Shown here: in pieces, positions 5,482 to 56,432 of the stretch
Layout: the number at the start of each line of letters is the position of its first letter
How positions within the stretch are numbered: position 1 is the first letter of the stretch
Notes under the pieces: generated by a model
Seen by the model: only the letters and a program-made list of their open reading frames with translations
Databases searched by the model: none
What the model was told of the DNA's origin: nothing
From: a virus
Lineage: Duplodnaviria; Heunggongvirae; Uroviricota; Caudoviricetes
Virus record (IMG/VR): IMGVR_UViG_3300026549_001501
Coordinates: 35,348 to 99,347 of that record
Reading direction: 5' to 3' (one strand)
DNA: 64,000 nucleotides
Program-made: the position numbers and the translations under genes

Positions 5482-5500
5482 AATATAAAAATTAGAAGTG

Positions 5501-5675
5501 TGCCCACGACAGGATTCGAACCTGTGACCGACGGATTAGCGCGTAAACTACGCTTCGAACGTAAACAGAGCTACATGCATGTACTCAACCCCGCTTTCTC
5601 CCATAATACGCGTGTTCGTCTCGGTGAACAATACCGTATGAAATCCGTTGCTCTATCCAACTGAGCTACGTGGGC
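5501..5675 (-). tRNA. tRNA-Arg(TCT) interrupted by a ~101-nt intervening sequence (about 5540..5640) inside the anticodon, after T34
   Basis: The 5' half (GCCCACG-TAGCTCAGTTGGATAGAGC-ACGGA-TTT) and 3' half (CTAA-TCCGT...ACAGGTTCGAATCCTGT-CGTGGGC) have 7/7 acceptor complementarity. The body closely resembles E. coli tRNA-Arg(UCU). The insert carries a GGGAGAAAG box and a 3'-proximal TACGTTCGAAGCGTA hairpin. Confidence 0.55.
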
Positions 5676-7549: not shown

Positions 7550-8332
7550 TTAATTATTTTTTATGTCATTGATAGTAAGTTTTTTACGGTGAAACCTTTT
7601 ACTATCTTTATTTAATGAGCCAAAATTAGGTGTTAAACTATGGCAATTCGGGCAAAGTAATTGCAGATTTTCAAGTTTGTTGTTTGTGCAATCACCGTCT
7701 ATATGGTGTACTTCTAAAGGTATTTTTCCTGTAGTTTCATTCTTTTTTCCCCACCCGCATTTTTCACATTTGTTATTATGTATTTTTAGAAGATATTTTT
7801 TTATAAACTCAGGTAATTGCCCTCCTGCTCCTCTTGTAAAATTTTCTCCTTGCAGCCATCGTTCAATTTTCTTTTTTCTTTCATATTCTATATGGCAAGT
7901 ATTACTACAAAATTGTCCACGTTTTATTGGTTTCCCGCAATTAGCGCATTTTTTATTGATTTCTTCTTCAATAAGGTTTCCGCCAAGGGACTTAGATATT
8001 TTTATTCTTGTTTCTAAAGAACGCGGCCCTCGTATTACATTGTTATATTTCGCGGCGCAAGAAGAAGAACAAAATTTATTAAACCTTTGTTCATACGTAA
8101 GTTTTTTACCACACGTCTCGCAATATCTCGGTTTTTTTTCGTACTCTTCTCTTGTAATCCTATTTTTATAATACTTTCCGTCTATTCCGGCTTGTTTTTT
8201 AATCTTTTCTATGAAACGCCAAGATGCACCATTATTCTTTCTGCCAAAATATCTTATTACTTCAAGTTCTGAATTACATTGTTCAAATGCTTTTAATATC
8301 TCCGCAGTTGTTATGCTATTTTTTTCTTTCAT
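7550..8332 (-). CDS. HNH homing endonuclease with repeated Zn-finger modules
   Basis: C-terminal HNH motif (VHHIDGDCTNN...LCPNCH). There are three KFCSSSCAAKYNN-type Cys modules. It sits between tRNA genes. Confidence 0.7.
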   Translation of the reverse strand: MKEKNSITTAEILKAFEQCNSELEVIRYFGRKNNGASWRFIEKIKKQAGIDGKYYKNRITREEYEKKPRYCETCGKKLTYEQRFNKFCSSSCAAKYNNVIRGPRSLETRIKISKSLGGNLIEEEINKKCANCGKPIKRGQFCSNTCHIEYERKKKIERWLQGENFTRGAGGQLPEFIKKYLLKIHNNKCEKCGWGKKNETTGKIPLEVHHIDGDCTNNKLENLQLLCPNCHSLTPNFGSLNKDSKRFHRKKLTINDIKNN

Positions 8333-9585: not shown

Positions 9586-9972
9586 TTAACTAACTTTCGT
9601 TATAAAAATCACCTCAGGGTGTTCCCCGAAAACTGTGTGAGTAACATTGCAAAGCCAAACGGTTAACGGAAATTTGCTATCTTCATTAAGAGTCTTATCC
9701 ATTATTTCATTGAATAAAAATCCATTTAATGAATATGTTGCTCCGTCATCGTCATGATCAAGAATTGTCAACTTTAATAAATATTGTTTCGGCTCGACAA
9801 TACTTAGGACAAACCCCGTTTCCATTTCAACTTCAACAGAATCTTTTCCATTTGATAGCAATTCACACATTTCGTCAGCACCCAAAACCATCTCATTATC
9901 TTCAAGACTATGCTCGGGAACGTCGGCATACCAACGCCCGTCTTGCTTGAAAAATTTAAGTTTTGTTTTCAT
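9586..9972 (-). CDS. hypothetical protein, 128 aa
   Basis: ORF downstream of, and apparently co-oriented with, the endonuclease gene. Confidence 0.45.
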   Translation of the reverse strand: MKTKLKFFKQDGRWYADVPEHSLEDNEMVLGADEMCELLSNGKDSVEVEMETGFVLSIVEPKQYLLKLTILDHDDDGATYSLNGFLFNEIMDKTLNEDSKFPLTVWLCNVTHTVFGEHPEVIFITKVS

Positions 9973-10820
9973 AATAAGTTATTATAAAAAGTCAAAAACT
10001 CGTTTATCTTTTCCCGCATTTTCTGTCGTCCCGCATCGTTATTTATTGTATTCCATTCAATTCGATAAATTGTGTACCCATGTTCTCTAAGGAAACAATC
10101 TCTTTCGGCGTCATGCGTTTGTCTACGTTTATGCTGTCTACCGTCAATTTCTAAATCTATCTTCTTCCCGTTTCTTTCAATTAAAAAATCAAGAAAGTAC
10201 TTTTTTGTTGAAAAATCCTCTTTTATAAAAGGTATTTTATTGTTTATTAAAACTTTTTCCCAAAATATCTCCGGGTATGAGTGAATGTTTCTTGTTTGCC
10301 ATCCGGAAAACGTCCCTTCTTTTATCCTTTCGTATGCCTTCTCTCTAATTTTATTTTTTACTTCTTCACTGTTATGTGCACATTGTTGACAACAATACTG
10401 GGCATTCTTATTTACTGAGGTAAATACTTTTCCGCAATGTTTGCAAACTATCTCATACTCTTTTTTACCAACTTGTCCATTCTTCAGTAATGAATGTTGT
10501 TGCAACGCCTCAGAAATCTTTTGCTTTGTCTCTTCTGATAAAGTTCTCTTTCGGTTGTTGTATTTAGCAGCACAAGATGAACTACAAAATTTTCTATTCC
10601 CGTGTATTACCTTACCGCATTGAAGGCAGCGCTTCTCTTTGTTTTGTTGTATTATATTTACAATATCAATATTGTACTCACGAGAGCAGTATTCAATTAT
10701 TTTCTTTTGTACGTTACCATTTGTGTATTTTACACCATAAATGATATTAGCGCATTCAGTAAATGTCTTACACTTCAAAAGTTCGTCTAGTTTTGTTTTA
10801 TTTTCCATAAAAATTGCCAT
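9969..10820 (-). CDS. homing-endonuclease-like protein: Zn-finger modules plus C-terminal Vsr-like (DUF559, PD-(D/E)xK) nuclease domain
   Basis: KFCSSSCAAKYNN modules as in 7550..8332. The C-terminus (FLDFLIERNGKKIDLEIDGRQH...DAERDCFLREHGYTIYRIEW) matches the Vsr/DUF559 pattern. Confidence 0.6.
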   Translation of the reverse strand: MAIFMENKTKLDELLKCKTFTECANIIYGVKYTNGNVQKKIIEYCSREYNIDIVNIIQQNKEKRCLQCGKVIHGNRKFCSSSCAAKYNNRKRTLSEETKQKISEALQQHSLLKNGQVGKKEYEIVCKHCGKVFTSVNKNAQYCCQQCAHNSEEVKNKIREKAYERIKEGTFSGWQTRNIHSYPEIFWEKVLINNKIPFIKEDFSTKKYFLDFLIERNGKKIDLEIDGRQHKRRQTHDAERDCFLREHGYTIYRIEWNTINNDAGRQKMREKINEFLTFYNNLL

Positions 10821-10875
10821 ATACTATAAATATAGCAATAAATCGAAAAATGTCAAGTCGAACCAAGTTTTTTTG

Positions 10876-11029
10876 TCGGGGTGACAGGACTCGGACCTGC
10901 GGCCTGATGGTCGAGCGACACGTAAGATTCGAACTTACGAAACTTCCAATATTGTGTCGCTTCACCAATTTCTCAGCCATTGGTTAACTGTAACCAAACC
11001 ACCCGCTCTACCAACTGAGCTACACCCCG
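10876..11029 (-). tRNA. tRNA (probably Pro(TGG); Glu(CTC) not excluded) interrupted by a ~81-nt insert in the anticodon loop
   Basis: 5' half CGGGGTG-TAGCTCAGTTGGTAGAGC-G-GGTGG. 3' half CCATC-AGGCC-GCAGGTCCGAGTCCTGT-CACCCCG-A. Acceptor 7/7. The insert contains hairpin TTGGTTA/TAACCAA and a T-loop-like hairpin CGTAAG-TTCGAAT-CTTACG. Confidence 0.5.
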
Positions 11030-11295: not shown

Positions 11296-11476
11296 GTTTT
11301 CTTCTACCAAGCAATTTCTTGCCCGTTTACCTTTAATTTATCACATTTACCCCGCCTGAGCCTTGTGTGAAAAATTTTTTTCATTTTCTTCCTGAATTTT
11401 AGCCATTGCTTTCCTTTGCTTCCGGTAAATTCTTCAGGATACTCTTTTAATGAATACATAAATTTTAATGTTTTGC

Positions 11477-11745
11477 GGAGAGGGAGGGATTCGAACCCCC
11501 GGGCCCGTGAAGGCCAACGGTTTTCCTTGCTACATCGCTTTCACATTGTAGTCTGGACTTTCTCTTCGTCCGTTCTGGACGTCTCCTGTAAAGTCTCTAC
11601 ACACTGTCTTTAAACATTGGCTCGGTATTACCATCAGCATTACATGTTAAGGCTTCACCGAATTAGGGAGATTCTACTTTTATCATTCCTGATAAAGCAC
11701 TCGAATTAACAAGACCGCCGCAATCGACCACTCTGCCACCTCTCC
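11477..11745 (-). tRNA. tRNA-Ser(TGA) containing a 184-nt group I intron (11527..11710) between U34 and G35
   Basis: The exons give a class II tRNA (GGAGAGG-TG-GCAGAGTGGTCGATTGC...GCGGT-CTT|GAAA-ACCGT, long variable arm, T-arm). The intron carries ACCGAGCCAA and GTGTAGAGACT, which match 9 of 9 and 11 of 11 nt of my recollection of the Azoarcus tRNA-Ile group I intron. The 5' exon ends in U and the intron ends in G. Confidence 0.6.
11527..11710 (-). other. compact group I intron (IC3-like) in tRNA-Ser(TGA)
   Basis: See the tRNA entry above. The P7-region motif GUGUAGAGACU and the CCGAGCCAA motif are shared with the 599-nt intron in tRNA-Leu(TAA) at 54927..55525. Confidence 0.55.
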
Positions 11746-13288: not shown

Positions 13289-13374
13289 CGGAGAGCAGTG
13301 GGATCGAACCACATCCGAAAATATGGACGCACAACTTAGCAGGTTGCCGCTGTCACCGTTCAGCATTACTCTCC
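13289..13374 (-). tRNA. tRNA-Ser(GCT)
   Basis: Class II tRNA. Acceptor GGAGAGT/GCTCTCC, anticodon stem GCAAC/GTTGT, loop CTGCTAA, long variable arm. Confidence 0.65.
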
Positions 13375-14148
13375 TTTATAATAAAAATTTTTCCAATCTT
13401 TATATTCTTTTTCTATACTTAAGCTTCGTAAGAAATCATAAGAATAAAGTTCTTTTTTTGTGTGTAAAATTCTATGATGATTTGGACACACAACTATTAA
13501 ATTTCCATTTTCATCACTGCCTCCATCTTTTTTGGGTACAATGTGATGCACATCGCAAGTTGATTCATTCCAACCACAAATAGCACATTTACAATTTGCT
13601 TTTTTTAAAATTTTTATCATGGTTGTTTTTGGCAGTTCCAAAATTGATTCAACCTTATCAATATATTTTCTACCTATGCTTTTTTTACATTTCTTACAAA
13701 GGCAATTTCTTCCTTCTTTTACTTTCCTTCTAGAAAAAAATTCTTCTCCACAGTTCTCACAAATGTAGCGATATAGAACCTTTTCTCTTGGATTACTCTT
13801 GTTAAATTCTTTAAGGGATTTAGACGTCTTTTCTCTATGCGCAACTGTAATTACACGTTCTTTATTATTGAACTTTGCAGCGCAGCTTTTTGAACAAAAT
13901 TTATCTTGCCCTTTTTTTAACTTTTTTCCGCAGCAAGTGCAAAACTTAGAAGGATGTTGCCTCTCTTTGTATACTGAAAAATCAAACCCTACAAGTTCTC
14001 CAACTTTCTTTAGAATCTTATTATGCTCAGTATTATCAGATACACCAAAATACTCAAAGATTTGTTTCTTACTCTTGAAAGAGTCAAAAAGCTCAAAGTA
14101 TTTTTTTATATCTTCTTTACTGTTTATTTCAATATTAAATTTTTTCAT
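13366..14148 (-). CDS. HNH homing endonuclease with Zn-finger modules
   Basis: KFCSKSCAAKFNN-type module. C-terminal HNH motif CDVHHIVPKKDGGSDENGNLIVVCPNHH. Confidence 0.7.
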   Translation of the reverse strand: MKKFNIEINSKEDIKKYFELFDSFKSKKQIFEYFGVSDNTEHNKILKKVGELVGFDFSVYKERQHPSKFCTCCGKKLKKGQDKFCSKSCAAKFNNKERVITVAHREKTSKSLKEFNKSNPREKVLYRYICENCGEEFFSRRKVKEGRNCLCKKCKKSIGRKYIDKVESILELPKTTMIKILKKANCKCAICGWNESTCDVHHIVPKKDGGSDENGNLIVVCPNHHRILHTKKELYSYDFLRSLSIEKEYKDWKNFYYKGE

Positions 14149-14790: not shown

Positions 14791-14797
14791 AATTAAG

Positions 14798-15202
14798 TGG
14801 AGATGACGCGACTCGAACGCGTGTCTTTCAATGTGAAAAAATGCTTTCTACATGCTTATTCACTGTTAGTCAATTTTAAACGGTACGGTAGCGAAGAACC
14901 TTATCCATTCTACATCCATTTTGGAATCTTATTCTTTGGACAAATGGAAATCCTCAGAAAGTACCTCAGTGTCGATGATATCCGTATTGACGAACCCACC
15001 TCGGTTCAGAAATCCGTCACGGATAATGGCCCTCCCGCTGCCTTGGCGGAAATGGGTTAAGCAAATCTACTCTGTAGATTAAGCAGCCATTCTGAAAGTG
15101 TTGTTGCCAACTATTGTTTGGAAACTGAGATCAAAGGGCAAATTTCCGACGCCCTGCATGCTTGCACTCTCCCTTCAATGAAGTCAAAGCCAAAACATCC
15201 CC
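14798..15202 (-). ncRNA. ssrA: tmRNA (ssrA), phage-encoded. Predicted tag peptide (A)GNNTFRMAA
   Basis: The 5' end (GGGGATGTTTTGGCTTTGAC) parallels E. coli GGGGCTGATTCTGGATTCGAC. The 3' tRNA-like end is GACACGCGTTCGAGTCGCGTCATCTCC-A. The acceptor helix has a G3-U70 pair (alanine identity). Internal AAUAGUU|GGC AAC AAC ACU UUC AGA AUG GCU GCU UAA mirrors the E. coli AAUAGUC|GCA resume context and ends in -AA plus a stop. It sits immediately downstream of a TATATTTG promoter. Confidence 0.7.
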
Positions 15203-18729: not shown

Positions 18730-18962
18730 AAATTTTACAGGCACGTAAACGAAATGCCCTCAGACTTCCCAATAGTTTACATTTACCGTCTTCAAACTAT
18801 TATGTGGCTCCTTCACACCTACGAAAAACCGACTTTATCAACTATCCATGGTATAGTATATAGGCAATTTGTCAACGCACCACTGCCAAAACCGATGGTT
18901 CTCTTATTACGCTACACCAAAAAGAGCGGGTCTGTTTACTTTATTAATTCCATTTTTTTTCG

Positions 18963-19138
18963 TGGGAACGCACAGATTCGAACTGTGGACCCCCTGCTTG
19001 TGCTGGTAAATTACGCTTCGGACGTAAATTGATGCAACAATTGATTTGCAATTCACTTTCTCCCGTTTTACCAAATATCCGTCACAGTGGATAATTCTGT
19101 AGAAGGCAGGTGCTCTAAACCAGCTGAGCTACGTTCCC
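18963..19138 (-). tRNA. tRNA-Val (probably CAC anticodon) interrupted by a ~101-nt insert in the anticodon loop
   Basis: 5' half GGGAACG-TAGCTCAGCTGGTTTAGAGC-A-CCTGC-CT. 3' half CACAA-GCAGG-GGGTC-CACAGTTCGAATCTGTG-CGTTCCC-A. Acceptor 7/7. The insert carries ACGGGAGAAAG and TACGTCCGAAGCGTA followed by 9 nt, homologous to the 5540..5640 insert. Confidence 0.55.
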
Positions 19139-19781: not shown

Positions 19782-19934
19782 GTACTCCCGCTGTGAATCG
19801 AACACAGATTTAGGGTTTAGTCGGTATTTTACGCTTCGGACGTATACAGTTCTGCATTCTCCCATATTACCGAAGCCCGTTTCGGTGGGCTACTCCGTAT
19901 GGAAACCCTCGTTCTATCCGTTGAACTACGGAAG
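19782..19934 (-). tRNA. tRNA-Arg (probably CCT anticodon) interrupted by a ~80-nt insert
   Basis: 5' half GCTTCCG-TA-GTTCAACGGATAGAAC-G-AGGGT-TTC. 3' half CTAA-ACCCT-AAAT-CTGTGTTCGATTCACAG-CGGGAGT-A. The insert begins CATACGG, as in the 5540..5640 insert, and contains TATGGGAGAATG and TACGTCCGAAGCGTA followed by 9 nt. Confidence 0.5.
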
Positions 19935-19936
19935 CA

Positions 19937-34482: not shown

Positions 34483-35402
34483 ATATATTAGTAACAGGCG
34501 CTAATGGGCAACTTGCGCAATGCCTTAAACGACTAGTGTACGCACACGGAAACGGACACCCTGATTCATACGTTGGAGAAAAGGACTATTGGATATTTGC
34601 CGATAGAGAAACACTCGATATCACAAAATTGGATGATGTCGTAGATTTCATAAAGAAAAATTACATCAATGTTATCGTCAATTGCGCCGCCTATACCAAT
34701 GTTGCTAAGGCAGAAGTAGATTACGATTCTGCTTATGCCGTAAATGTTTGTGGCTCAGAAAATCTTGCGTTTGCCTCTAAAGCAAACGGCGCGGGTCTTA
34801 TTCATATATCAACGGATTATGTTTTCGACGGAAAGAAAGGTTTACCTTATCTTGTTGATGACGCCACTAATCCGCTAAATGCATATGGAAAAAGTAAGTG
34901 TGATGGCGAAAAGGTAATTGTTCTGCAAGGAGGAAGATACTTAATTTTTAGAACTTCTTGGCTATATTCCCAGTACGGGAAGAACTTTGTGAAGACGATT
35001 GCCGGTAAATGTATAGGTGGTGAGCCCTGTACTGTTGTGAATGACCAATTCGGCTGCCCTACAAATGCTAATGATTTGGCAAGATTCATTTATAGGATTA
35101 TAACTGAGAATAACGCCGACAACAGGTACCTGAGCAAGAGTGGAATCTATCACTATTGCAATAGCGGAGAGGCTACATGGTACGACTTTGCACGTGCGAT
35201 TTATGATAAGATTGGAGACAAGGTTGATAAGGTTCAGCCAATGAAAACAACAAATTCAGGTGTTGAACGTCCAATGTATAGTGTAATGGATACGTCCCTT
35301 ACCTCAGAAATTTTCAATGAAGAATTTAAATCTTGGGAAGATTCACTATCCGAGGTTATTAACGAAATATTAACAGAAGTAATTAGTCTAATAAAGGCAT
35401 AA
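34479..35402 (+). CDS. rmlD: dTDP-4-dehydrorhamnose reductase
   Basis: MNILVTGANGQL Rossmann fold and the overall RmlD pattern (YTNVAKAE, STDYVFDG). Confidence 0.7.
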   Translation: MNILVTGANGQLAQCLKRLVYAHGNGHPDSYVGEKDYWIFADRETLDITKLDDVVDFIKKNYINVIVNCAAYTNVAKAEVDYDSAYAVNVCGSENLAFASKANGAGLIHISTDYVFDGKKGLPYLVDDATNPLNAYGKSKCDGEKVIVLQGGRYLIFRTSWLYSQYGKNFVKTIAGKCIGGEPCTVVNDQFGCPTNANDLARFIYRIITENNADNRYLSKSGIYHYCNSGEATWYDFARAIYDKIGDKVDKVQPMKTTNSGVERPMYSVMDTSLTSEIFNEEFKSWEDSLSEVINEILTEVISLIKA

Positions 35403-53273: not shown

Positions 53274-54113
53274 ATGGGTTATAAATGTAAATATTGCGGA
53301 AAGGTTTTTGAAAATAGAAGGGCGTTAGCTGGTCATGTAAGCCACTGTGCTTGTAACGATAATAAAAAGCGAAATATTGCCACTTATAAGAGTGTTTCCC
53401 AACAAAGTAGACGCACTTATATTGAAAAACACCCTGAAAAATATGTGAAAAACGCACATATATTTCATTGTAAAAAATGTAATAAAGAATATACTTTAAA
53501 CTTGACGGATGAAGAGTTTAAAAAAGGAAAATATACCAAATATTGTTCTTTGTCGTGTAGAAATGGGCACAAGGTAAGTGCTGAAACAAAAAAGAAGATA
53601 TCTGAATCGTTGGTGAGAAATGGAAACCATTACATCGCGCCAAACAAAATATATAAATGTAAATATTGTGGAAAGGAATTTACAATAAAAGATGACGGAG
53701 TAAAGGGAAGAAATTTTTGCTCAGATACGTGTCGCGAGAAATGTATGGAAGAAGAGGTATATGCTAAAAACCAACACGGCAAAGGCAAAAGCGGGTGGTA
53801 TAAAGGAATTCATTGTGATAGCTCTTGGGAATTAGCTTTTGTTCTATACCATATGGACAATGATATTCCAATACAGCGTTGTAAAGAAAGAAGAACATAT
53901 ATTTTTGAAGGCAAAACATATAAATATTATCCCGATTTTTGTATAGGCAAAGAGATTATTGAAATAAAAGTGTATAAGAATAAGAAATGGTTTGCTAAAG
54001 AACAGCAAAATAAGGACATAAAAGTTTTAAATCTGAAAGAGATTACACCATATTTAAAATATGCGATAAACAAATACGGAAAAGATTTTACGAAATTATA
54101 CGAGAAAAAATAA
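53274..54113 (+). CDS. homing-endonuclease-like protein: C2H2/CxxC zinc fingers plus C-terminal PD-(D/E)xK (Vsr/DUF559-like) domain
   Basis: CKYCGKVF...HVSHC, CSLSCRNGH and CSDTCREKC modules. The C-terminus is YYPDFCIGKEIIEIKVYKNKKW. It sits inside the second tRNA cluster. Confidence 0.5.
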   Translation: MGYKCKYCGKVFENRRALAGHVSHCACNDNKKRNIATYKSVSQQSRRTYIEKHPEKYVKNAHIFHCKKCNKEYTLNLTDEEFKKGKYTKYCSLSCRNGHKVSAETKKKISESLVRNGNHYIAPNKIYKCKYCGKEFTIKDDGVKGRNFCSDTCREKCMEEEVYAKNQHGKGKSGWYKGIHCDSSWELAFVLYHMDNDIPIQRCKERRTYIFEGKTYKYYPDFCIGKEIIEIKVYKNKKWFAKEQQNKDIKVLNLKEITPYLKYAINKYGKDFTKLYEKK

Positions 54114-54892: not shown

Positions 54893-55576
54893 GCCATGGT
54901 GGCGGAAAGGTAGACGCGAGGGACTTTAACGGTAGACGAACTTACACTGATAACTTACACTTGGGGATTACAGACTGAGACACCCTGTATACGGGTAAGC
55001 GTTCGCCTATAATTTGAGTGCACCAAGGGAAACCTTGGATGTAGAACCTCCCTAATTCGGTGAAAGCTATAGTTTGGATTTACAGGAATATATCGGATAA
55101 TCGTCTAAATTAGTTGGTGCATTGCCAACAGTAGTACATAGTTAACTGAATTTCAGTAATGATAGCAGTCGTTTAGAATCTATGTGTAAGAAGACAGTCC
55201 AAATATGCTAATACCGAGCCAATGTCACTAATAGAACAGTTCCTAAGAAGTGAACTTAATTGAAACGTTTATCGTTAATGTAATCTATTAGACAGTGTGT
55301 AGAGACGAGATACAGGAGGAACCTAAGTTGAAATGAATTGTTGATGTGGAAGGATATTAACAAGCATTCGCAAAATGCTTCGTTACATCTATAATGTTCA
55401 ACAATTTTACTTGCGCAAGATTTCAATATGGTTAAGATACAGTCCAGACCACAAACAAATAAATAAAAGTGAAAGTGAACGCTAATAGGCGTATGTTATT
55501 TGGTAACGAAAGTTATAGTGGTATGAAAATCCCTTGGGCCGAAGGGCCCGTGTGGGTTCGAGTCCCACCCGTGGCA
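54893..55576 (+). tRNA. tRNA-Leu(TAA) interrupted by a 599-nt ORF-less group I intron (54927..55525) between U34 and A35
   Basis: Exon 1 is GCCATGG-TG-GCGGAAAGGTAGACGC-G-AGGGA-CTT. Exon 2 is AAAA-TCCCT, a long variable arm, GTGGGTTCGAGTCCCAC and CCGTGGC-A. The intron contains AATACCGAGCCAATGT and GACAGTGTGTAGAGAC, the same motifs as the Ser(TGA) intron. It ends in G, and the 5' exon ends in U. Confidence 0.7.
54927..55525 (+). other. group I intron (no ORF of 60 aa or more) in tRNA-Leu(TAA) at the canonical U34/A35 position
   Basis: See the tRNA entry above. The insertion site is the same as the ancient cyanobacterial and plastid tRNA-Leu(UAA) intron. Confidence 0.6.
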
Positions 55577-55585
55577 CATGGTAAT

Positions 55586-55659: not shown

Positions 55660-56432
55660 CAAAAAAATCCAAAAGCGTCTGCACAATGTTAGTAGGTGGC
55701 GTTGGACAATATCGAAATGGAAAGCCGTGCAGGGTAAGTAAAGAGTAGAGACGATACTTCGAAAAATCGTATTGGTGTAGCGGTAGCACGGCCCCCGTGA
55801 AGGGGGTAGGCAGTGGGTTCGAATCCCCTATCACGAACTAATGAATTCTTTGAAACAGGATTAAACCTCACCTTTTATTGTAGGGACGGGAATTAAGGTA
55901 CTAAACTCAATCATAAGATAAGGAGTGTTAATCCAAAGTACCGTACTTTAGATTCGTGGGCAGGTTGGCTAGTATAGTAAACCACGATGCAATAAGTTTC
56001 AGGTTTCAATCAATTTCATCGTTTTGGAAGGGTATCGTAAACCTTTTCCGCATCAAGGCAAGCGATGCGTTACTGACCGTATTGGAATGCCCCATAAGGT
56101 AGGAGGGGTTTTTCGGGATTGAAACCCGACATTCTGAAATCGGAGGAGTCGATTGCACAGGTTTGCAGAATTAGCGTATGGTGATGCGAACCCACTCGGG
56201 GCCCTATGAGTGAGACCGTAATGCAGTTTATCGGTAGGAGTAGGGAGACATGCGTGAGAGAACAGCCGAAGGCGCTTGGGGATGGCGTTAGTCCTAAGGG
56301 TTGCCAAGAGTAAGCTTAGTATCAAGAGGGAACTTGCAAGAGTTACTGTGACTTGGGGGCGTTTGTCCGCCTTTGTGCAAGGGAAGTTATTTACGCCAAT
56401 GATGGAAGATAGTGATTATATGACTATGAGCC

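Follow-up and report, generated by a model that had tools for sequence, protein, structure and literature searches.

The core of the IC3-type group I intron of Azoarcus tRNA-Ile(CAU) is braced by two tetraloop-receptor contacts, L2-P8 and L9-P5 (for the structures see the papers cited in PMC3984707). Classical phage group I introns are mostly of the IA type and often contain endonuclease open reading frames (ORFs). Those of T4 (td, nrdB and sunY), Twort and the SPO1/Bastille polymerase lie in protein-coding genes (PMC3984707). In bacterial tRNA genes, a 2026 survey listed 33/34, 34/35 and 36/37 as commonly found insertion sites, with mostly ORF-less introns; those longer than 500 bp carry endonuclease genes (PMC13011429). 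We analysed a 64-kb stretch of viral DNA (Caudoviricetes; positions 35,348 to 99,347 of IMG/VR record IMGVR_UViG_3300026549_001501; hereafter the window), in which a tRNA-Leu(UAA) gene is interrupted between U34 and A35 by 599 nucleotides (nt). We found that this insert, referred to below as the Leu intron, is very probably an IC3-type group I intron of the bacterial tRNA kind. The huge-phage paper never mentions introns and took its tRNAs from the bacterial model of tRNAscan, and a jumbo-phage comparative review mentions introns in protein genes only. No paper that describes group I introns in the tRNA genes of phages came up in our literature search; its coverage was incomplete and an earlier description is possible.

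Joining the two exons in silico gave an 85-nt tRNA, which ARAGORN called as tRNA-Leu(taa). It has an AGGGA/TCCCT anticodon stem, the loop CTTAAAA, a long variable arm, a Leu-type D-arm (GGTGGCGGAAAGGTAGACGC) and discriminator A, and the predicted spliced junction reads ...GGGACUU followed by AAAAUCCC. Both the coordinates and the call on the joined exons agree with an earlier sequence-only reading of this DNA, which had proposed a 599-nt ORF-less insert at U34/A35 of tRNA-Leu(UAA), with a CTT-AAAA junction and the AGGGA/TCCCT stem. The site was also correctly recognised there as that of the ancient cyanobacterial and plastid intron, 34/35 being a common position in bacterial tRNA-Leu (PMC13011429). 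The split gene was not reported by default ARAGORN or by Rfam at the gathering threshold, and no second Leu(UAA) gene was found in the window by ARAGORN, either with default settings or with introns allowed. Listing the ORFs of the insert revealed no endonuclease gene: the largest plus-strand ORF lying fully within it has 36 amino acids (aa), and the sole other sizeable one (56 aa, TTG start) is on the opposite strand.

Table 1. Features of the window. Percentages of paired cells and numbers of pairs with both-side or compensatory changes come from the alignment of 21 split genes described in the text; z, folding z-score.
Feature	Position	Strand	Details
tRNA-Leu(UAA) 5' exon, positions 1-34	54893..54926	+	34 nt; ends AGGGA-CUU (C32-U33-U34), ...AGGGACTT
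tRNA-Leu(UAA) 3' exon	55526..55576	+	51 nt; starts AAAATCCCT; AAAA-UCCCU; contains A35-A36, anticodon stem strand UCCCU, long variable arm, T arm, acceptor strand and discriminator A
Predicted group I (IC3-type) intron, ORF-less	54927..55525	+	599 nt; TAACGG...GGTATG; between U34 and A35
P1 5' strand, exon CUU	54924..54926	+	U34 in U.G wobble at the 5' splice site, plus two Watson-Crick pairs
P1 extension, long hairpin in P1 loop	54927..55012	+	fold pairs 54931-54933/55005-55007 etc.; z -1.0
Internal guide UUU-GAG	55013..55018	+	both halves covary with exon sequence in the family
P2 hairpin CCAAGG-GAAA-CCUUGG	55023..55038	+	GAAA L2 tetraloop 55029-55032; 88.8% paired; both-side changes in 6/6 pairs
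P3 5' strand CCUCC	55047..55051	+	partner 55315-55319; 100% paired; compensatory changes in 4/5 pairs
P3 3' strand GGAGG	55315..55319	+	
P4 5' strand UUCGGU ('P' element)	55056..55061	+	partner 55213-55218; 100% paired, nearly invariant
P4 3' strand ACCGAG ('Q' element)	55213..55218	+	
P5 and extension	55065..55209	+	P5 AGC/GCU; receptor-like GCUAUAG...UAUGC; P5a UUUGGA/UCCAAA; then a further extension of ~120 nt
P6 CAAUGU/ACAGUG and P6a extension	55220..55297	+	P6a CUAAUAGA/UCUAUUAG
P7 5' strand GAGAC ('R' element)	55302..55306	+	bulged A55303; partner 55442-55445; 98.8% paired; compensatory changes in 2 pairs
P7 3' strand GUCC ('S' element)	55442..55445	+	J8/7 AAGAUACA directly before
P8 AACC/GGUU and extension	55320..55433	+	11-nt GAAA-receptor motif CCUAAG...UAUGG; P8a UUGAAAU/AUUUCAA; distal extension of ~85 nt
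P9 CCAC/GUGG, internal extension, P9b GUAAC-GAAA-GUUAU	55449..55521	+	L9 GAAA tetraloop 55508-55511
Omega-G, terminal intron G	55525	+	at the 3' splice site
tRNA-Ser(UGA) gene, split after U34	11475..11745	-	compact 185-nt group I intron, about 11526-11710
Free-standing HNH endonuclease genes	7550-8332, 13366-14148	-	among minus-strand tRNAs, >40 kb from the split tRNA-Leu gene
DUF559/Vsr-like endonuclease ORF	9969-10820	-	in the tRNA array
ORF with zinc-ribbon repeats	53274-54113	+	279 aa; 0.8 kb upstream of the split tRNA-Leu gene
Four tRNA genes with 81-101-nt anticodon-loop inserts	5500-5675, 18962-19138, 19782-19935, 10875-11029	-	inserts apparently after position 34
Transfer-messenger RNA (tmRNA) gene	14795-15202	-	RF00023 119.7 bits; tag peptide GNNTFRMAA; inside the tRNA array

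The elements of the Leu intron could be laid out in group I order (Table 1). Guide GAG (55016-55018) pairs with exon CUU to form P1, C32-U33-U34 facing G55018-A55017-G55016 with a wobble at U34.G55016, and guide UUU (55013-55015) can pair with the 3'-exon AAA (55526-55528) as P10. The R-like block reads GUGUAGAGAC and the S-like block AAGAUACAGUCC; P7, which they contribute to, forms a pseudoknot with P3 and is the candidate helix in which guanosine would be bound. The anticodon-loop site, the compact core and the L2-P8 and L9-P5 tetraloop-receptor motifs, whose docking we infer from the motifs, point to the IC3 class. A second split gene in the window, for tRNA-Ser(UGA), carries an intron that is small for group I (185 nt; the Ser intron). 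Compared with it, the Leu intron consists of a Ser-type core with large insertions in five peripheral elements, the P1 loop, P5, P6, P8 and P9, and these RNA extensions account for the 599-nt length. The P1 loop region, for example, has only 6 nt in the Ser intron versus a long hairpin in the Leu intron.

We compared the Leu intron with the cyanobacterial and plastid trnL introns. Reference sequences were obtained by scanning metagenomes with an R-element pattern (GGTGCAGAGACTCRAYGG) based on the plastid trnL primer region; this gave 94 split tRNA genes, 80 of which ARAGORN called as Leu(taa). The cyanobacterial Q element, used in the same way on viral contigs, led to other group I introns in tRNAs and to no trnL reference. 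The likeness extends to the tRNA (Leu-UAA), the site (U34/A35), the exon context (ACUU before and AAAAUCC after an intron ending in G) and the guide GAG, as well as to the order of the blocks AAUxCxGAGCCAA, GUG(C/U)AGAGAC and AGUCCA, to a GAAA-capped L9 hairpin immediately upstream of the 3' splice site and to a receptor-type motif within P5. The reference introns are shorter, about 180-250 nt (the shorter split genes fetched measure 266-340 nt overall) against 599 nt, and differ from the Leu intron in lacking its five extended peripheral elements and its setting in a phage tRNA array. Block-for-block alignment with 13 metagenomic cyanobacterial/plastid trnL introns gave 54-61% identity over 204 core columns, whereas the main group of the phage family described below was 78-91% identical to the Leu intron over the same columns. 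In a neighbour-joining tree (midpoint rooted, no bootstrap) the cyanobacterial/plastid introns formed a cluster apart from the phage family. Placement relative to bacterial tRNA-Leu introns was a check named by the sequence-only reading; the alignment supports sequence homology with the trnL intron lineage, and the unbootstrapped tree puts the phage introns in a cluster of their own. Compact tRNA-Leu 34/35 introns make up most of the deeper phage branches, a hint that the phage branch may have started out at Leu 34/35 and moved into other tRNAs afterwards.

With the Azoarcus intron the likeness considered here is one of architecture. Both L2 and L9 are GAAA, and receptors are present in P8 (CCUAAG/UAUGG) and P5 (GCUA(U)AG/UAUGC); the Azoarcus intron lies in another tRNA at another insertion position, and is about 205 nt long with no peripheral extensions. 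In three members of the phage family (L020, L037 and L095) the guide is GUG and the intron follows the CAU of a tRNA with that anticodon, an exon context that we take to be that of the Azoarcus intron. The Leu intron resembles the classical phage group I introns in being phage-borne; it would differ from them in being of the IC3 type, and it lies in a tRNA gene. Unlike the long introns of the bacterial survey (PMC13011429), it and its relatives of 420-722 nt are long yet ORF-less. Group I introns at position 34/35 of tRNA-Leu(UAA) are classical; this one differs in being phage-borne, long but ORF-less, and below the Rfam threshold.

A scan of viral contigs with a 14-mer from the P element (CCTAATTCGGTGAA) gave 118 loci. 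At 20 of these the motif lay, according to ARAGORN, within a split tRNA gene, so that the family occupies at least 20 such genes on viral contigs, with intron lengths of 192-722 nt. The host genes are those for Leu-UAA (34/35 and 33/34), Ser-UGA, Arg-UCU, Lys-UUU, CAU-anticodon tRNAs (36/37) and Thr-UGU. No stop-free stretch exceeded 91 aa in any frame of any family intron. When the same 14-mer was searched for in 185,579 species genomes (one per prokaryotic species), the first 120 matches listed were all without family context and are put down to chance, and among them the family was not seen in cellular genomes. Blastn of the Leu locus against GenBank phages (E<=1e-5) matched the 3' exon only; under less stringent settings, and with the compact Ser gene as query, LR756501, Atu_ph07 and others were recovered.

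We then asked how well the structure drawn on the window sequence is borne out by its relatives. P2 to P9 (P7 as a pseudoknot) and the anticodon stem were scored on a MAFFT alignment of 21 split genes that had not been fitted to the structure. The 69 proposed pairs, in 14 helices, were paired in 89.6% of cells, against 30-41% when the partners were slid by 1-3 columns. Both sides had changed in 41 of the 69 pairs, and none of 500 shuffles attained any observed measure. Pairing was 97-100% in P3, P7, P8 (100% and 96.6% for its two helices), P9 (97.6%) and the L9 hairpin P9b (100%, with compensatory changes in four of five pairs). The splice-site pairings behaved in the same way. The last exon base is a U opposite the guide G in 19 of 21 introns, and the guide triplet tracks the exon context (GAG/CUU, GGU/ACU, GUG/CAU, GCA/UGU). 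For P10, the base immediately 5' of the guide G forms a pair with the first base of the 3' exon in 18 of the 21 introns, and this pair covaries as A-U, G-C, C-G, U-A and U.G. A terminal G is present in 20 of the 21 aligned introns.

A covariance model built from 19 trimmed family cores, none of them from the window (model R1), was used to search the 64 kb. It matched exactly two places, the Ser intron (162 bits, E=1.3e-43) and the Leu intron (72.2 bits, E=1.9e-18). The same model matched the cultured Agrobacterium jumbo phage Atu_ph07 (MF403008) with 177 bits (L312 892-1178, about 112930-113216) and the 735-kb huge phage LR756501 with 169 bits (L311 625-846, about 190285-190506). In both phages the aligned flanks read as tRNA-Leu(UAA)-type at the same junction (...UU before and AAAAUCC after an intron ending in G), that of LR756501 being a clean CUU-AAAA. 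Neither a tRNA nor an intron is annotated at these matches, and in Atu_ph07 a 'hypothetical protein' coding sequence (AUZ94936.1) overlaps the 3' end of the match. These two predicted introns differ from the Leu intron in being compact (about 200-270 nt), with a core identity of 71-73%.

The extensions of the Leu intron recur elsewhere in the family. A module very similar to its P5 extension is present in L013, the P6 extension has a near-identical counterpart in L054, and the P1 extension has a homologous module in L023, with compensatory changes. The peripheral extensions thus behave as modules, some of which recur near-identical in introns of other contigs. As separate observations on contigs carrying family introns, a GOLLD RNA (176 bits) lies beside a large tRNA array at L105 10518-10951, and L021 has an abiF RNA motif at 1861-1897.

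These elements suggest that the Leu intron would be spliced by the standard group I pathway. On folding of the precursor, exon C32-U33-U34 would lie on guide GAG (55016-55018), with the U34.G55016 wobble marking the 5' splice site, and a free guanosine held in P7 (GAGAC/GUCC, bulged A) would attack after U34. The terminal G55525 would next take the same P7 site, the first three A's of the 3' exon being aligned on UUU (55013-55015) as P10. Attack of the U34 3'-OH after G55525 would then join the exons and give the anticodon loop CUUAAAA. As in the IC3 introns of Azoarcus and cyanobacteria, the core is likely to be braced by docking of the L2 GAAA on the P8 receptor CCUAAG/UAUGG and of the L9 GAAA on the receptor-like motif of P5. 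These tertiary contacts are presumptive, as are catalysis and any role of the extensions, and splicing may depend on a protein cofactor.

Besides a possible need for a cofactor, several observations weigh against a functional group I intron at this locus. RF00028, the Infernal model named as a check by the sequence-only reading, scored only 10.2 bits there (E=9.3; gathering threshold 50). The R1 alignment of the Leu intron is good in its 3' half, and the 5' half is mis-aligned by the large insertions. The distal P5a and P6a columns were poorly supported (51-76% paired), with homologues differing in content there. P4 did not vary in the sample, partly because the loci had been fetched with the P-element motif. 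The receptor-like motif in P5, GCUAUAG, has a one-base insertion relative to the GCUAAG of relatives, which might weaken docking of L9. Folding z-scores were -0.7 to -1.0 for the P1, P5 and P6 extensions; those of the P8 (-2.5) and P9 (-2.2) regions were lower, and z-scores are not used as support.

Taken together, the RF00028 score far under threshold, the large AU-rich insertions in five loops with their weak z-scores and the altered P5 receptor could also describe a decayed relic that no longer splices, in which case tRNA-Leu(UAA) would be a pseudogene and the phage would use the host tRNA-Leu(UAA). We regard this as very unlikely. The core blocks, the P1 and P10 guide pairings, the P7 with its bulged A and the terminal G are all intact; the core is 91% identical to that of L054, the exons form a perfect cloverleaf, and the gene is the sole one for Leu(UAA) in a window with about 30 tRNA genes. 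Relatives that are equally long and ORF-less retain compensatory changes. As to RF00028, it gave 83-105 bits on three metagenomic introns of the cyanobacterial/plastid trnL(UAA) type against the 10 bits of the Leu intron, and in the phage branch it reached 62.7 bits, above threshold, in a full-length match to the 220-nt intron of the tRNA-Leu(UAA) gene of L076. On the co-resident Ser intron it gave a full-length match of 34.5 bits (E=2e-7), and the Atu_ph07 and LR756501 introns were below its gathering score. We attribute the negative result at the Leu locus to insensitivity of the model to the phage branch and to long insertions. The lack of a group I model hit, which the sequence-only reading had set as grounds for refutation, formally applies to RF00028 at this locus. 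It was not counted as a refutation because RF00028 also misses clear homologues. The family-specific model R1 does match the locus.

Another possibility is that the Leu intron reached its site, or the Ser intron its own, by recent transfer within this phage genome, driven by the homing endonucleases that reside there. Spread between tRNA genes within the phage, possibly by way of these endonucleases, was the view of the sequence-only reading, which had noted motifs common to the two introns. The motifs are indeed present: the Ser(TGA) intron has exact copies of ACCGAGCCAATGT and GTGTGTAGAGAC (11614-11626 and 11593-11604, minus strand), and ACAGGAG is found in both introns. Single 12-13-mers with two mismatches are within chance expectation for the window. 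The ordered set of P, Q, R and S blocks that the introns have in common (CUCCCUAAUUCGGUGAA; AAUACCGAGCCAAUGU; GUGUGUAGAGAC...ACAGGAG; AGUCCAGAC) goes beyond chance, as R1, built from other contigs only, matches the window exactly at both introns. A common origin was therefore upheld, the alignment and R1 placing both introns in one family, and the two have the same exon triplet CUU and guide GAG. The step from shared motifs to spread within the phage was not, since the motifs belong to the family-wide catalytic core (P4, P6/J6-7, P7 and P3) and are near-identical in introns of many unrelated viral contigs. Over 179 core columns the closest relative of the Leu intron is the tRNA-Leu intron of L054 (91%), with the co-resident Ser intron ranking only 15th of 20 (65%); the closest relative of the Ser intron also interrupts a tRNA-Ser gene, on a different contig (L117, 79%). 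The tree gives the same picture. These values argue that the shared motifs reflect a conserved core, not recent intragenomic copying.

Candidate endonucleases for such a transfer do exist in the window. Two free-standing HNH genes lie in the minus-strand tRNA array, and one of them (7550-8332) has a zinc-ribbon region in common (E=1e-5) with the ORF at 53274-54113, close upstream of the split tRNA-Leu gene. This upstream ORF also matches PHROG 15427 'endonuclease' weakly (E=3.9e-5). A search of Pfam found no nuclease domain in it, and from its sequence it may be a free-standing homing endonuclease. Both introns are themselves without an ORF, and reverse splicing would account equally well for the guide retargeting seen in the family. 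Homing aided by an endonuclease is conceivable but lacks support, and a recent transfer between the Leu and Ser introns appears very unlikely.

We give almost no credence to the register returned by ARAGORN with introns allowed (gene at 54893-55577), a tRNA-Ser(tga) whose 597-nt insert is displaced by one base in the 3' direction (54928-55524), because it closes the anticodon stem with a c.a mismatch, ends the intron in U instead of G, loses the U.G pair with the guide, and is at odds with the D-arm sequence, 3-bp D stem and discriminator A, which by the identity rules of bacterial tRNA-Leu and tRNA-Ser fit Leu genes, the Ser genes of the window having G73. Among other origins for the insert, a homing-endonuclease remnant was ruled out by the lack of ORFs and by the spread of the extra length over five separate loops. 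A group II intron, an archaeal bulge-helix-bulge intron, an insertion sequence or a miniature inverted-repeat transposable element were incompatible with its size, core motifs and ends.

With introns allowed, ARAGORN reported 31 tRNA genes in the 64 kb. Four minus-strand genes have much smaller inserts in the anticodon loop (81-101 nt), which are too small for group I introns, gave no match to R1 and, in the two of the four that were tested, no Rfam match at E<=5. Three of them have a 5' pseudoknot-like element, whose ACAG or CGG and the loop of the following hairpin are complementary. The helix that closes these three inserts covaries and lies directly against the 3' junction, and they share a hairpin that resembles a T-loop (UACGUYCGAAGCGUA) as well as a conserved AUGGGAGAA; the insert at 10875-11029 is a variant. 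Their 3' end is not consistently G. In six sequences the proposed pairs were 87.5% paired, versus at most 42% when slid, which is modest support. The homologues found lie inside tRNA genes and are confined to a few large viral contigs (L276, L279, L289 and L013). From these sequence features the small inserts may represent a new class of small tRNA intron, and they are possibly the most novel feature of the window.

The tRNA and tmRNA content is in keeping with a genome of the huge-phage type. Other genes of the window encode DnaJ, an IMPDH-like protein and a RecD2-like helicase. Just downstream of the split tRNA-Leu gene, 55767-55837 (plus strand) is a marginal tRNA match (RF00005 29.6 bits, threshold 29) that ARAGORN did not report, and may be a degenerate or unusual tRNA. 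The stretch of about 600 nt downstream of the tRNA cluster (55840-56430, plus strand) contains no sizeable ORF and has a folding z-score of +0.42; no Rfam match, no blastn match in GenBank phages and no sign of a structured RNA was found in it.

Our findings leave the knowledge of how group I introns work unchanged. The family they describe is a clear case, found in nature, of a guide sequence being retargeted to different tRNA species and to different positions in the anticodon loop, and it shows long ORF-less introns made of exchangeable peripheral RNA modules. One could imagine that the intron is more than a passenger, and that a phage-borne trnL branch able to retarget its guide and swap ORF-less peripheral modules could serve the phage; we consider this unlikely. 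If it were true, the intron could, for example, time the release of functional tRNAs or maintain a pool of precursors in which the anticodon loop is shielded from anticodon nucleases of the host until they are spliced, and the conserved peripheral modules might be regulatory or protein-binding elements.

Group I introns of this lineage appear to be recurrent and unannotated in tRNA genes of viral contigs and large phages. As the loci are unannotated and below the Rfam threshold, the tRNA genes of huge phages are probably undercounted in inventories that rely on tRNA finders with default settings. For the genome studied here, recognising the introns restores tRNA-Leu(UAA), and likewise tRNA-Ser(UGA), to its gene set.

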